Assembly (NCBI RefSeq): GCF_003334255.1
Contig: NZ_QOWU01000026.1
Reading direction: 5' to 3' (one strand)
Origin: Escherichia coli
GTDB lineage: Bacteria; Pseudomonadota; Gammaproteobacteria; Enterobacterales; Enterobacteriaceae
DNA length: 63,217 nucleotides
Shown here one piece after another: positions 41,128 through 50,626 of the stretch. Under the pieces are notes generated by a model. The model searched no databases. It saw only the letters and a program-made list of their open reading frames with translations, and was not told where the DNA came from. The position numbers were made by a program, and so were the translations under genes. The number at the start of each line of letters is the position of its first letter. Position 1 is the first letter of the stretch.

Positions 41128-41805
41128 TCAGAGGCTTAACGAGAAGCCTTTTCGGGAATTTCGATCTGACAGTCTTGAAATATCCTGTAGAGTACGGCGC
41201 ATTTCTTCCGTCAGATGTTTGAAGGCGTTAAATTCAGCAACAGCGGCGTCAACGTTATAGCCCTTGCTGTGTAGCTCGTTGAGGATGCGCATAGTTGGGC
41301 TTGGCATGTCGAAGAGCACGGAAACGTCCAGGTTAAGAGTTTTTCGATCAACATAGCTCATCATGGAGTAGGGGTGATGCTCTGAAAACCACGATAGAGG
41401 GTAGTTGATAGATAGCGTTGATTCTGGAAGCTGAAGTTGTTCTGGGATTTTTTGACTGAAATAGCAGTCTTCCAGTTTTTCGAACACCTCCCACGCCCGA
41501 TCGGTTTCGAGCATTTTTGCATGACGGGCAGCGCCGCGTTCAGTCCAGAGGATGAGGGAACGAACGTTACGGGCAATTTTCACAGAGTAGTTAAAAGCTA
41601 CTCTGTGCTTGAACTCACGTAAAGTTTCACCTTCAAGTTTGAAGAAGTGTTTTTCCTCAATGAAACGACCTTTGTTTTCGTGGTGATTCTGGCGAATACG
41701 AATAGCTTCTGTGCCGTAAAGGTGCGCCAAAAGTTCAGTAGTGATAACGGGGATCTGCTTGTAAGTAATCGTGGAGAGTGTTTCAACAGAAACTTGAGTT
41801 GTCAT
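41128..41805 (-). CDS. Phage antirepressor (AntA-like N-terminus plus KilAC C-terminal domain)
   Basis: ORF 41128..41835; start at MTTQVSV with GGAGG SD; C-terminal ~70 aa nearly identical to C-terminus of ORF 49989..50626. Confidence 0.7.
   Translation of the reverse strand: MTTQVSVETLSTITYKQIPVITTELLAHLYGTEAIRIRQNHHENKGRFIEEKHFFKLEGETLREFKHRVAFNYSVKIARNVRSLILWTERGAARHAKMLETDRAWEVFEKLEDCYFSQKIPEQLQLPESTLSINYPLSWFSEHHPYSMMSYVDRKTLNLDVSVLFDMPSPTMRILNELHSKGYNVDAAVAEFNAFKHLTEEMRRTLQDISRLSDRNSRKGFSLSL
41196..41410. repeat. ~215-bp direct repeat, copy 1 (about 90% identical to 50058..50272)
   Basis: gcgcatttcttccgtcagatgtttgaaggcgttaaattc...ggcttggcatgtcgaagagcacgga.. shared with second antirepressor gene. 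Confidence 0.8.
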
Positions 41806-42148
41806 AGTGACGCCTCCGGTTGATGAGTTTTTCATTCACCACCGTCAGGTTCCTAATCATCGGGTGGCGAGACGTACAGGGTTAGGAACTACCGGATCAA
41901 CCAACCGGCCAGCCTTTCGGCTGCCCCATACGCCCCACCATAATTCAGATGTGCGTGTGCATACGACAATAAAAAACACGCTCGCGGCGTGTGTCTGTCG
42001 CGGTTGAATATCCGGGGTTCCTAATCCCGACGCCAGATTTTGCTGGCGTGCGGTGAATATAATCCCGGATACCTATTTTTGTCAAACAACCGTTGCGCAT
42101 TACACAACAGTCGCTATAATGATTCGCGTAACGCAACAGGAAACAAGC

Positions 42149-42427
42149 ATGATAAAAAGCTGGAAACACAAAGGACTTCAACGTTTCTTTGAAACAGGAA
42201 ATGCATCAGGCATAAATCCCAATCACGTTAAACGCCTGAGAACGTGCCTTCAGGTAATAGATCAAGCTGAAATCATTGATGATATTAACCTTGCCGGGTA
42301 CAGGCTGCACCAGTTGCAGGGGGACAGATCCGATACATGGTCTGTCACCGTCTCCGGTAACTGGAGAATCACATTCGAGTTTCGGAACGGCGATGCTTAT
42401 ATTCTTAACTACGAGGATTACCACTAA
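42149..42427 (+). CDS. higB: HigB-family toxin (RelE/ParE superfamily)
   Basis: ORF 42053..42427; start at MIKSWKHKGLQRFFETG...GNWRITFEF..GDAYILNYEDYH, 92 aa. Confidence 0.75.
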   Translation: MIKSWKHKGLQRFFETGNASGINPNHVKRLRTCLQVIDQAEIIDDINLAGYRLHQLQGDRSDTWSVTVSGNWRITFEFRNGDAYILNYEDYH

Positions 42428-42732
42428 TGGCGATGTTTAACCCCCCTCATCCCGGAGAAATTATTGCTGATATTCTGGAAGATCAGAATATTGGAATCAG
42501 GGAACTGGCAAGAGCGCTTGATGTCGCGCCTTCCACTGTTCAGCGACTGGTTTCAGGTAATGCGACAATATCTCCTGAAATGGCTGTTCGTCTCGCTGCT
42601 GTCCTGGGTGGAACTCCGTCTTCATGGATTCGTCTCCAGACGGCATGGAGCCTCGAAAAAGCGGAAAGAGAAGTTGACGTATCTCATCTCTCAACAAAAT
42701 ACCGCCCGGCAGAAATTTCGCCTCATGCTTAA
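42427..42732 (+). CDS. higA: HigA-family antitoxin (XRE HTH)
   Basis: 101 aa, MAMFNPPHPGEIIADILEDQNIGIRELARALDVAPSTVQRLVSGNATISPEMA...; start overlaps higB stop (TAATG). Confidence 0.75.
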   Translation: MAMFNPPHPGEIIADILEDQNIGIRELARALDVAPSTVQRLVSGNATISPEMAVRLAAVLGGTPSSWIRLQTAWSLEKAEREVDVSHLSTKYRPAEISPHA

Positions 42733-42774
42733 CCACCGCGCCGTCATTCTGGCGGCGTCGGAGAGTGGAGGATA

Positions 42775-43557
42775 TCAGGTTCCGAACTCTGCTTTGTTCT
42801 CCGCCTCCAGGATTTCTTCAATCTTCCGTACTCCCCGATTATTGTATCGAAAGCTTTCTACCTGCTTATCCGAATACGGGGATTTGTCGATGAACCATTT
42901 CCCGTATTGTTCTGTTTTGAGCATGTAGGTATTGGCAATGCGACCGATCTTGTTTGCAGTGACGCCAAACTGTTTACCAACCTCTGTTGCACTGTAGTGA
43001 TGTTCATCAAGAACAGGAAGGGGGATAACATTAAAACCAGCAGAACGGTTAATCACTGAGGCGTAAGCAGCCTGTTTCGCCTTGTCGCCCAGGTGCGGTA
43101 AACGATCCAGAACGCTTGAGATAACCTCCATTTCCATTTTCAGCGCTTTAGCTTTGCGGTATTCAGGAAGGCCGTTTGATGGTGTACTTTTCTCCTGTTT
43201 AAGGCTGTAAGTTCCTGTCTCCATCAGGGCTGGGAGGACAACTTCACAAACCCAATCCTGAACCCGTTCTGCCGATGGTAACGAGCTACGCATGATGAGA
43301 CGAAAAGCGTCACCTTGGCCAATAAGTTGAATTCCTCGCGGATTGTCACCTAAACCTAATTCTCGCGATTCGCGATAATTAAGTTTAATCAATGACTTGC
43401 AGTGCTTTTTCAATGCGTCCGCCGTGTTGGCGTATCCCAGGGCTTTTGCGAATGGAGCAGCCAGAAACACAGGCTTACCCTGATAGAAAGCTGCATCCAG
43501 CCCAACGATATTACCCTGTGAGATTTCGCACTCAAAATGTTTGATAATAGATTTCAT
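42775..43557 (-). CDS. Bro-N domain antirepressor-like protein
   Basis: 260 aa; N-terminal Bro-N-like region (..GLDAAFYQGKPVFLAAPFAKALGYAN..). Confidence 0.65.
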   Translation of the reverse strand: MKSIIKHFECEISQGNIVGLDAAFYQGKPVFLAAPFAKALGYANTADALKKHCKSLIKLNYRESRELGLGDNPRGIQLIGQGDAFRLIMRSSLPSAERVQDWVCEVVLPALMETGTYSLKQEKSTPSNGLPEYRKAKALKMEMEVISSVLDRLPHLGDKAKQAAYASVINRSAGFNVIPLPVLDEHHYSATEVGKQFGVTANKIGRIANTYMLKTEQYGKWFIDKSPYSDKQVESFRYNNRGVRKIEEILEAENKAEFGT

Positions 43558-43577
43558 ATCATTTCTCCTGTTGGGGG

Positions 43578-49110: not shown

Positions 49111-49392
49111 TCAGAAAGGACAGGGGGAGAATTTTCTCTCCCATTCTTCTTCCGCCCGAGCATAGGCGATCGCTGAGATATAATCGTTGTACGCCTCTTC
49201 AGCTTTTTCGCCAGTGAGTGCCAGTTGGGCTTCTTTGGGTAAAAAAAGGCTGCTCATAAGCAATGGTTTATCGGGGAACATGCTGATAAGCTCCTGCGCC
49301 CGATCATCAATCCATTTATCCTTTTCATCCTGAATTTGCTGATTAATCCAGCGACGCTCCTCTATGCGGTCGCAGGTGAGGTATGCGTTCAT
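49111..49392 (-). CDS. Hypothetical small phage protein
   Basis: 93 aa ORF. Confidence 0.4.
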   Translation of the reverse strand: MNAYLTCDRIEERRWINQQIQDEKDKWIDDRAQELISMFPDKPLLMSSLFLPKEAQLALTGEKAEEAYNDYISAIAYARAEEEWERKFSPCPF

Positions 49393-49412
49393 GGCGGAAC
49401 TCCTGATTCCGG

Positions 49413-49694
49413 TTAATGCATTAAATTAATTTGTCGGGAAAGCTGACATACAGGGCAGTTACATTCTTCCTCCTGCTCCTTAGCGAAGAAATATGCAGCG
49501 GCCTGTAATGCGATGTCTTCTGGATGTTCTGCGATAAACATAACATTGCCTTCCGTATCAATAACAGAAATAGCCTCATCAGACAGGACGACAAAATAGG
49601 CGATGATTTTATCATCCATAAAAACTTCTCCCATTATCGTTCCTGCTGGAGTTACGACGCTTTTTACATTGATATTTATTTTTTGATTGAGCAT
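49413..49694 (-). CDS. Hypothetical small phage protein
   Basis: 93 aa ORF with CxxC pair near C-terminus (..CNCPVCQ..). Confidence 0.4.
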   Translation of the reverse strand: MLNQKININVKSVVTPAGTIMGEVFMDDKIIAYFVVLSDEAISVIDTEGNVMFIAEHPEDIALQAAAYFFAKEQEEECNCPVCQLSRQINLMH

Positions 49695-49705
49695 GATATT
49701 TCCTT

Positions 49706-49918
49706 TCAGGCTGGTGAGATTAACGGTTGGCCTTTATTGTTCAGGTAAACTTCTATTGCATCTGAGATAATGCGAATTTTTTCAATCAGTGAATGTGCGT
49801 AAAGTGCATTATTAACGTTCGCTGACGCCATGTAATAACGCCCGTTGTAAAGAATTGCTGTGCCGGGTTTAACGTCCTCGCGAGAAACTAATGCGGTTCC
49901 GTAGTGAGGTTTGAGCAT
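49706..49918 (-). CDS. Hypothetical small phage protein
   Basis: 70 aa ORF. Confidence 0.35.
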   Translation of the reverse strand: MLKPHYGTALVSREDVKPGTAILYNGRYYMASANVNNALYAHSLIEKIRIISDAIEVYLNNKGQPLISPA

Positions 49919-49988
49919 GACAAATCCTCCGGTTAATTAATCCAGATATTTTATTTAATCCCCGATATGTGATCGGGGATGGGGTTAA

Positions 49989-50626
49989 TTAAAGATTAAC
50001 GTTGAAACCAAAGCGGGAAGATTTTTCCGATGTGCGGGAAATATCCAGCAATTTACGGCGCATTTCTTCCGTCAGATGTTTGAAGGCGTTAAATTCGGCG
50101 ACAGCGGCGTCAACGTTATAGCCTTTGCTGTGTAGCTCATTGAGGATGCGCATAGTTGGGCTTGGCATATCGAAGAGCACGGAAGCATCAAGGCTGATAA
50201 CTTTGCGATCAACATAGTTCATCGTGGCGTAGGGATGGTTATCTGAGAACCACGAGAGAGGGTAGTTGATGTTCATTGGTGCAGGTAAAAGGCTCTGGCG
50301 AAGTTTCTTTTCGCACTCGATGAAGTAGCGGCGTATCTGGCGGCCTTTTTCGTTACGTTCAACCATCGCCAGCTCTTTGGCTGTATCGAGGGTGAGGTGG
50401 TAATCCTTGCGGTTGTAACCGCCTCTACCTTTTGCTTCCCGAATTTGGGAAGCAATCATATAGTCCTGATTTTCAACGAAACCATATTCAGCAATGCGTT
50501 CTGTAATCCAAGACGCAAAGCGTTTACCTACCCCAAGAAAAGTATGTAAATCACGGGCATTAACGAGAAGAGTAGTTTCGTTGGCGATAGTGCCGTTGAA
50601 TACGGGGATGAGTTGACTAGTCATTT
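49989..50626 (-). CDS. Phage antirepressor (AntA-like N-terminus plus KilAC C-terminal domain)
   Basis: ORF 49989..50867; start at MTSQLIPVFNGT; C-terminus ..NYPLSWFSDNHPYATMNYVDRKVISLDASVLFDMPSPTMRILNELHSKGYNVDAAVAEFNAFKHLTEEMRR.. Confidence 0.7.
50058..50272. repeat. ~215-bp direct repeat, copy 2 (pairs with 41196..41410)
   Basis: Near-identical DNA encoding the shared KilAC C-terminal domain. Confidence 0.8.

Follow-up and report, generated by a model that had tools for sequence, protein, structure and literature searches.

Two putative RNA-gated antirepressor cassettes sharing a C-terminal domain in the left arm of an Oslovirus-like prophage of Escherichia coli

The stretch of Escherichia coli DNA analyzed here—63,217 nucleotides (nt) of contig NZ_QOWU01000026.1, assembly GCF_003334255.1, hereafter called the window—contains two antirepressor-like genes, A and B, whose 3′ parts form a direct repeat. 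Positions 1 to ~37750 are E. coli-type chromosome, and the remainder is the left arm of a lambdoid prophage of the Shiga toxin (Stx) type, Oslovirus-like, with the two antirepressor cassettes lying in its early-left region. Between 40000 and 52000 the closest record is phage GER2 (O117:H7), which is 99.5% identical over 86% of the length; the Stx2a phages VT2phi_272, PA2, and PA8 (genus Oslovirus) are ~96% identical over 73%. A repeat search of this 12-kb portion together with a self-BLAST of the whole window delimits the repeat to 41177-41409 and 50038-50270, which align without gaps over 233 nt with 205/233 = 88.0% identity (E = 5e-80) and a start-to-start spacing of 8,861 base pairs (bp). 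No second internal repeat was found in the 63 kb by self-BLAST at E <= 1e-5. The two copies stand in the same codon register, and the repeated DNA is the coding sequence of a conserved C-terminal domain of ~93 amino acids (aa) common to both proteins. The initial annotation had reported a 215-bp near-identical direct repeat, about 90% alike, in two antirepressor genes about 9 kb apart. Self-alignment bears out the direct orientation and the distance, and the figure of ~90% holds as well, with 88.8% identity across the 215-nt span 41196-41410, although "near-identical" was generous. Compared segment by segment, identity is uneven, being highest in a central core, lower in the 5′ head, and lowest in the 3′ tail; the longest perfect blocks measure 43, 29, and 23 nt. 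The genes and the parts of the repeat are as follows.

41128..41805, minus strand: gene A, 225 aa, ORF6N N-terminal domain plus Ant-like C-terminal domain; the open frame extends to 41835
41177..41409, minus strand: repeat copy A (233 nt), coding for the greater part of the gene A C-terminal domain
41197-41325, minus strand: conserved core of copy A, 129 nt, codons 30-72 of the domain, 95.3% identical to its partner 50058-50186
41326-41412, minus strand: 5′ head of the repeat, 77% identical between copies
41131-41196, minus strand: 3′ tail up to the stop codon, 54.5% identical between copies
41193-41235, minus strand: 43-nt perfect block, partner 50054-50096, the crossover interval of natural A/B chimeras
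41100..41120, minus strand: terminator hairpin 3′ of gene A, the same hairpin as described 3′ of phiPA8 gp7
49989..50624, minus strand: gene B, 211 aa, AntA N-terminal domain plus Ant-like C-terminal domain
50038..50270, minus strand: repeat copy B (233 nt), coding for the greater part of the gene B C-terminal domain
49960..49978, minus strand: hairpin 3′ of gene B, CCCCGAT...ATCGGGG, resembling the gene A hairpin, without a clear T-run

Gene A matches the anti-repressor family phrog_1760 (1.9e-122) and gene B the anti-repressor Ant family phrog_377 (1.4e-62) in PHROGs. The start of gene A is supported by the annotated VT2phi_272 orthologue and by a published primer for gp7 of phage phiPA8 (PMC10810198), in agreement with the coordinates assigned earlier; a further in-frame ATG lies upstream at 41835. 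For gene B, the earlier interval 49989..50626 was right at 49989 and 2 nt off at its other end, which falls at 50624. That the N-terminal domains differ, as had been proposed, is evident from Pfam, which places ORF6N (PF10543) at aa 22-108 of protein A (E = 1.9e-19) and AntA (PF08346) at aa 21-91 of protein B (E = 7.8e-27). The last 93-94 aa of the two proteins, by contrast, are 79% identical without gaps and include an invariant 42-aa stretch; the final 93 residues correspond to aa 133-225 of protein A and aa 119-211 of protein B.

This shared domain had been called KilAC-type, a label that does not survive profile searches. Pfam scans of both proteins yielded only ORF6N or AntA even at E <= 10, with no match to PF03374; an alignment of 16 sequences of the domain retrieved no Pfam family at E <= 0.001 and nothing but noise, and NCBIfam returned no family for protein A, protein B, or the domain alone. 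Assignment to the KilA-C or ANT domain (PF03374) is not supported. When the PDB was searched with the single domain sequence by phmmer, one coherent entry emerged, chain E of 5D50, an 86-aa "Anti-repressor protein" (E = 0.003), and with a profile of the domain the same entry was reached at E = 1.2e-5. For a reciprocal comparison, a family alignment was built around the 5D50 sequence, and hhalign of the two profiles gave 96% probability and E = 4.4e-9 over 46 columns, pairing domain residues 32-78 with residues 26-71 of the antirepressor, a stretch that coincides with the conserved DNA core. The core of the domain thus appears, from sequence profiles, to be homologous to the antirepressor of Salmonella phage SPC32H, and the assignment is corrected to an SPC32H-Ant-like domain that currently has no Pfam family. 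Among the PHROGs, phrog_1760, phrog_377, and phrog_995 end with it, and the 77-aa phrog_17980 consists of it alone; in 1.8 billion representatives, searched exhaustively, it was located behind ORF6N, AntA, and Rha, behind N-termini that by eye resemble KilA-N, Bro-N, and the P22 antirepressor N-terminus, and as stand-alone proteins of 99-129 aa. With the domain as query, a word-indexed search of proteins gave mainly partial ones. The antirepressor reported as "ant" in phi24B by Fogg et al., with a P22-Ant-like C-terminus, was not equated with the shared domain, P22 being absent from the domain's tblastn matches. Antirepressors of the SPC32H kind bind and inactivate phage repressors (PMC7380047; Lemire et al. 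2011, PMC3121763). The C-terminal domain would accordingly be expected to bind a CI-type repressor, either that of its own phage or those of co-resident prophages, as does FsoA of Fels-1.

Upstream of each coding sequence lies an array of RNA elements, which in cassette A is made up as follows.

42056..42085, minus strand: promoter-like site TTGACA-18-TATATT, 11/12; the isrK model match begins just downstream at 42049
41971..42049, minus strand: isrK-type leader RNA, RF01394, 68.9 bits (gathering threshold 50), carrying the a1/b1 target hairpins
41992-41976, minus strand: intrinsic terminator of the leader, a hairpin plus T-run that ends the isrK-type RNA
41860..41945, minus strand: C4 antisense RNA, RF01695, 67.5 bits (gathering threshold 45)
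41902-41896 and 41889-41882, minus strand: C4 loop segments GGUUGAU and GUUCCUAA, respectively, by exact-motif mapping
41813..41856, minus strand: downstream target sites, b2 UUAGGAAC at 41856-41849 and a2 AUCAACC at 41824-41818

The a2 site of cassette A abuts the Shine-Dalgarno sequence GGAGG at 41817-41813. The b and a motifs recur upstream at 42024-42017 and 42007-42002, again with exact complementarity to the C4 segments, and the c4-a1b1 model RF03163 scores 44.5 bits on this leader, slightly under its gathering threshold of 46.7. Cassette B is laid out in the same order.

50838..50867, minus strand: promoter-like site TTGACA-18-TATATT, 11/12
50773..50823, minus strand: leader with b1 UGAACAC at 50823-50817 and a1 CAGCAAG at 50812-50806, then a hairpin plus T-run at 50803-50773
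50665..50753, minus strand: C4-family RNA, Rfam sRNA-Xcc1 (RF02221), 69.5 bits (gathering threshold 53)
50699-50693 and 50690-50684, minus strand: C4-family segments CUUGCUG and GUGUUCA, respectively, by exact-motif mapping
50632..50665, minus strand: downstream target sites, b2 at 50665-50659 and a2 CAGCAAG at 50640-50634

Here a2 overlaps the Shine-Dalgarno sequence AAGGA at 50636-50632. Both cassettes therefore run from a promoter-like site through a leader with two targets and a hairpin, a C4-family RNA, and a second target pair to the coding sequence. In each, the C4 segments are complementary to one upstream and one downstream pair of sites, in an order that fits antiparallel pairing. 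The target sequences differ between A and B without cross-targets; independent regulation of the two is therefore expected. A C4-family RNA directly precedes all 13 genes carrying the domain (13/13) and one truncated pseudogene in the window and five related loci. By analogy with immI of phage P1 and isrK-anrP of Gifsy-1, the C4-type RNA would pair with the flanking targets and thereby silence the antirepressor until the balance of RNAs shifts; each gene is thus best described as a putative self-contained, RNA-gated cassette of this type. A model in which LexA controls the antirepressor, as for Tum, GfoA/GftA, and SPC32H Ant, was dropped since no LexA box lies near gene A or B, the sole CTGT-N8-ACAG match in the window (26479) being in host DNA and at chance level.

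Several long open reading frames (ORFs) and annotations cross the C4-family RNA: a 292-aa ORF at 49989-50867 on the minus strand, the "ash family protein" entries P0008, P0019, and P0021, and the 774-bp Rha gene of RM10386 (locus L004, 23678-24451). Such starts are probably over-extended, and the N-terminal extensions would be translated RNA genes.

The history of the cassettes is best seen in related argW prophages, where the same two positions carry swapped N-terminal domains. ORF6N occupies position A in VT2phi_272, with Rha at position B; JNEC-KY176 carries AntA at position A; in O26 strain RM10386, position A holds AntA and position B ORF6N, and a third gene contains Rha; position B of GER2 holds ORF6N; and in strain 00_3230, where B is occupied by Rha, the gene at A is of the AntA-linker kind (annotated "Ant") and has a truncated remnant of AntA upstream of it. 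When window positions 49400-51500 were compared with 5,426 complete E. coli genomes, most matches ended where the repeat has its upstream edge (50270-50276), and the window's arrangement of AntA with its upstream region at position B occurs in only 3 of these genomes. In AntA cassettes located at position A, homology to window cassette B runs from the repeat to ~50842-50867, at the promoter, which means that the exchanged unit comprises promoter, RNA leader, and N-terminal domain. A tabulation of the 133 sites distinguishing the window's A and B copies across 13 copies shows that the type of linker tracks the N-terminal domain and that of the C-terminal head and tail tracks position, the switch occurring at domain nt ~2-17. 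Two third copies, GER2_C and RM10386_C, are chimeric, the head being b-type and the tail a-type; their switch lies between domain nt 176 and 220, an interval that is the 43-nt perfect block. The block from promoter to N-terminal domain has thus been exchanged as a unit at both positions, with the C-terminal tail staying with its downstream neighbors, and the domain shuffling postulated in the initial annotation is seen directly in these swaps and chimeras. The favored reading, to which a probability of roughly 0.7 may be attached, is that the repeat represents the C-terminal module which two antirepressor cassettes, each under its own regulation, have in common, and that it is a product of ordinary phage module shuffling. 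KilA-N, Bro-N, Rha, and AntA modules have long been known to be shuffled in phage regulators, and modular exchange in lambdoid phages is reported as well, in accounts by Botstein in 1980, Iyer et al. in 2002, and De Paepe et al. in 2014. The cassettes conform to this picture in combining one C-terminal module with many N-terminal domains and in having mosaic joints at module boundaries, within short conserved stretches. Nothing essential sets them apart; they constitute a well-resolved local case of an exchanged unit that also takes in promoter and regulatory RNA.

Two further structures lie in or beside these cassettes. In GER2, gene A is interrupted by a 500-bp insert with its own sRNA-Xcc1 (locus L002, 5564-6063), flanked by a 71-bp duplication of window 41492-41562, and in strain 00_3230 a truncated AntA N-terminal pseudogene with an RNA leader (locus L005, 13381-13647) stands upstream of the newer cassette. 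Both are fossils of cassette insertion.

How the two copies have come to be so alike bears on the alternatives. Compared along the full length of the domain, copies fall together according to position and not according to genome (A-A 95%, B-B 94%, A-B 79-82%), from which it follows that the paralogy is old, and the two- or three-copy arrangement is common to about 100 Stx phage records. Copies of the domain are present in ~620 E. coli genomes. A recent duplication or recent gene conversion within this particular genome would be in keeping with the 95.3% identity of the core and with its synonymous divergence (dS) of only 0.21, about that of orthologous copies across phages; the grouping by position, the tails of just 54.5% identity, and the breadth of the arrangement make it highly unlikely. 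Given old paralogy and divergent tails, any conversion would have been limited to the core and would not be genome-specific. Values of dS amount to 0.21 in the core, 0.87 in the head, and 2.6 in the tail, with a nonsynonymous divergence (dN) of 0.01 in the core and dN/dS of 0.05 in the core and 0.24 overall. Such ratios, together with the invariant 42-aa stretch, speak for purifying selection on the protein domain, and selection of this kind might alone have kept the copies similar, the DNA repeat having no role in recombination. That account is nevertheless very unlikely to suffice, as it leaves unexplained the conservation of synonymous sites in the core (third-position differences at 5/43 codons as opposed to 24/51 in the flanks, Fisher p = 2.7e-4), the A/B chimeras, and the breakpoints at the edge of the repeat. 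In terms of module shuffling, the similarity of the core DNA would reflect strong purifying selection combined with recurrent homologous exchange between the paralogues. A candidate catalyst would be the phage's own RecT/exonuclease pair.

The initial annotation had also proposed that the copies offer a substrate for deletion of the intervening DNA by RecA. Were this substrate active, populations should be polymorphic for loss of the 8.9-kb segment carrying higBA and recT/exo. The predicted product of an A × B crossover is an in-frame hybrid gene with 8,861 bp removed, and the geometry is suitable: the copies are directly oriented and share one codon register, the phage encodes its own RecT and exonuclease, and natural chimeras cross over within the 43-nt block. 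The minimal efficient processing segment for RecA/RecBCD recombination in E. coli is ~23-27 bp, a length that the uninterrupted identities of 43, 29, and 23 nt reach. Deletion junctions were built in silico and searched for in the 5,426 genomes. A short junction query of 1,190 nt gave one-piece matches in 90 of them; the three loci inspected carry an AntA cassette or remnant at position A with recT/exo still present, so that such matches are module swaps rather than deletions. With ~1.3 kb of flank on each side, the window-type junction was covered to >=80% in 0/5,426 genomes, although the parental window-type B arrangement is itself rare, which limits this test, and the VT2phi_272/PA8-type junction was likewise found in 0/5,426, though at least 147 records match the query at >=99% identity. 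No record in this genome set matches the window-built queries at >=99% along the tested stretches, so the source strain itself is apparently not among these genomes. Divergence of 12% strongly lowers RecA recombination when mismatch repair is active and would do so here, and loss of the HigBA-like pair might be counter-selected. Thus the copies qualify as a plausible deletion substrate by length of identity and by the crossovers of the chimeras, but the deletion product is missing from all 5,426 genomes; an in-frame deletion of 8,861 bp is inferred to be possible, yet rare or selected against, and an active deletion polymorphism is unlikely.

Returning to the shuffling of modules as the preferred reading, a more specific version of it would assign the conserved core a role as a fixed 3′ docking sequence, through which whole regulatory units, each made up of promoter, C4-type RNA with private target sites, and N-terminal effector domain, would be exchanged between positions and prophages by homologous recombination within the core, possibly catalyzed by RecT and the exonuclease. 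This is a tentative and rather doubtful extension. Were it true, RNA-level immunity and N-terminal domain function could be re-assorted rapidly while the repressor-binding tail stays matched to its locus, and the low synonymous divergence of the core would reflect selection for recombinability and not for protein sequence alone.

A number of observations weigh against the favored reading or parts of it. The nucleotide-level comparison comprises only six loci—the window and five related ones—too few to yield recombination frequencies; the lower dS of the core could partly reflect codon or RNA constraints instead of exchange. As to the antirepressor function, the binding and inactivation of a repressor by proteins A and B is a prediction by analogy. 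The AlphaFold model of the isolated domain is of moderate quality (pLDDT, the predicted local distance difference test, 74.5), and a Foldseek search of the PDB with it gave no match at E <= 0.001 and did not list 5D50, so that the link to 5D50 depends on sequence profiles only. The window's CI repressor may, to judge from its sequence, cleave itself, and an antirepressor would then be dispensable for induction. As to the RNA leaders, duplex energies of whole RNAs computed with RNAduplex were, for the downstream target of cassette A, not clearly better than those of shuffled sequences, and were replaced by exact-motif mapping of C4 segments and targets. The complementarities so mapped are only 6-8 nt long, with several of the motifs occurring at chance frequency elsewhere in the window, and cassette B has no Rfam isrK match, only the hairpin and T-run.

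Comparison with known systems places the cassettes between several of them. They resemble the immI region of phages P1 and P7 (c4 - icd - ant) in having a C4-family RNA in the antirepressor leader on the same strand, with RF01695 and RF02221 both above gathering, and in the predicted target pairs upstream (a1/b1) and downstream, the latter at the ribosome-binding site. The c4 RNAs of P1 and P7 differ in specificity, and the different targets of cassettes A and B resemble this difference. Unlike the immI products, the window proteins consist of ORF6N or AntA followed by a tail resembling SPC32H Ant; an upstream ORF coupled in the manner of icd is not evident, and the cassettes, two per genome or three in some relatives, reside in a lambdoid prophage of the Stx type.

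The second parallel is isrK-orf45-anrP of Gifsy-1, where transcription from the isrK promoter gives the small RNA IsrK and stops at an intrinsic terminator, as described by Hershko-Shalev et al. 2016 (PMC4825925). Read-through yields a processed downstream RNA, STnc1160, and an RNA-controlled anti-repressor-like gene; the read-through mRNA is translationally silent, short IsrK activates it in trans, and AnrP induces the prophage (PMC4825925). Cassette A is similar in matching the isrK model at 68.9 bits, with its own promoter-like site and terminator. By contrast, cassette B lacks a detectable isrK match, and the 45-codon upstream ORF was not identified in the window; indeed, no separate short upstream ORF of the icd or orf45 type was identified for either cassette. 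SPC32H Ant itself is the predicted homologue of the core of the window domain, and a likeness to Fels-1 lies in the left-arm location of the genes, within a prophage that has an apparently cleavable repressor of its own; FsoA, encoded in the left operon of Fels-1, acts on the repressor of Gifsy-2 (Lemire et al. 2011, PMC3121763). In contrast to the small antirepressors SPC32H Ant, GfoA/GftA, and FsoA, the Ant-like module of the window forms the C-terminal part of a two-domain protein, and in place of a nearby LexA box control is apparently exerted by antisense RNA.

The closest counterpart of gene A is gp7 of phiPA8, termed PNB-1, an orthologue that shares its start context (as seen from the primer), its downstream terminator hairpin, and its neighbors, PNB-2 and an MT-A70 methyltransferase. 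In phiPA8, the hairpin blocks co-expression of gp7 with gp6/gp5, PNB-1 was treated as a putative nucleic-acid-binding protein whose role was left open, and a recognizable PNB-1 was found in only ~14% of the STEC (E. coli strains producing Shiga toxin) with the methyltransferase (PMC10810198). The last figure fits the swapping of N-terminal domains seen among related prophages. By its sequence, the PNB-1 gene appears to be an immI-type antirepressor cassette. The frequency of induction of Stx-type prophages sets toxin output, and each prophage seems to carry two, sometimes three, RNA-gated antirepressor cassettes. With their differing N-terminal domains and a shared tail predicted to bind repressors, such cassettes are plausible agents of cross-talk among the lambdoid prophages of STEC; cross-talk by antirepressors has been shown for the Salmonella prophages Gifsy and Fels-1 (PMC3121763). 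The locus is a clear local example of antirepressor cassette shuffling that does not overturn current understanding, and what it adds is the corrected domain assignment and the recognition of phiPA8 PNB-1 as a putative antirepressor cassette.

The surroundings of the two genes are summarized below. The prophage is integrated beside a tRNA gene at the same site as Stx2a phages of the VT2phi_272/PA8 type.

37754-37828, minus strand: tRNA-Arg(CCT)
37949-39193, plus strand: integrase ORF
40023-40649, minus strand: MT-A70 methyltransferase, corresponding to phiPA8 gp5
40646-41077, minus strand: 143-aa protein, phrog_1680, corresponding to phiPA8 gp6 (PNB-2)
41806..49988: intervening segment between genes A and B
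42149-42427, plus strand: HigB-like protein
42427-42732, plus strand: HigA-like protein
42775-43557, minus strand: Bro-N antirepressor-like protein, phrog_1726/phrog_130, with a C-terminal domain different from that of A and B
44237-44851, minus strand: DUF551-like protein
45561-46382, minus strand: YfdQ/DUF2303 protein
46868-47455, minus strand: SSB-like protein
47455-48147, minus strand: exonuclease
48144-49163, minus strand: RecT
49111-49392, minus strand: Gam-like protein
49706-49918, minus strand: Kil
52656-53369: CI-type repressor, helix-turn-helix plus a weak UmuD-like (S24-type) C-terminal match

In phiPA8, gp5 and gp6 are reported to be the two subunits of a 16S rRNA methyltransferase, which increases both virulence and spontaneous induction (PMC10810198). 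The content of the intervening segment is as first described, with HigB/HigA-like, RecT-like, exonuclease, Gam-like, Kil, and accessory genes present. The HigB/HigA-like pair (42149-42732, plus strand) is divergent from cassette A, the promoter regions sharing the spacer 41836-42150, and could, if active, disfavor loss of the segment between the repeats. The Bro-N antirepressor-like gene has no C4-family leader; adjoining it, a 92-aa ORF (43578-43856, minus strand) resembles the N-terminal part of phrog_1726 antirepressors, which may point to a gene that has been split or persists as a remnant. Farther to the right in the prophage, Rfam models well over gathering mark a sok antitoxin RNA (58719-58893, plus strand, 118 bits), which implies a hok/sok-type locus, and the small RNA STnc100 (62696-62912, plus strand, 149 bits). 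Just upstream of cassette B lies a 183-aa ORF (50890-51441, minus strand, phrog_19473) with the signal-peptide-like N-terminus MMRKILRTTLITTIFFSPIVQA, which is found together with an AntA cassette at position B in only 3/5,426 E. coli genomes.

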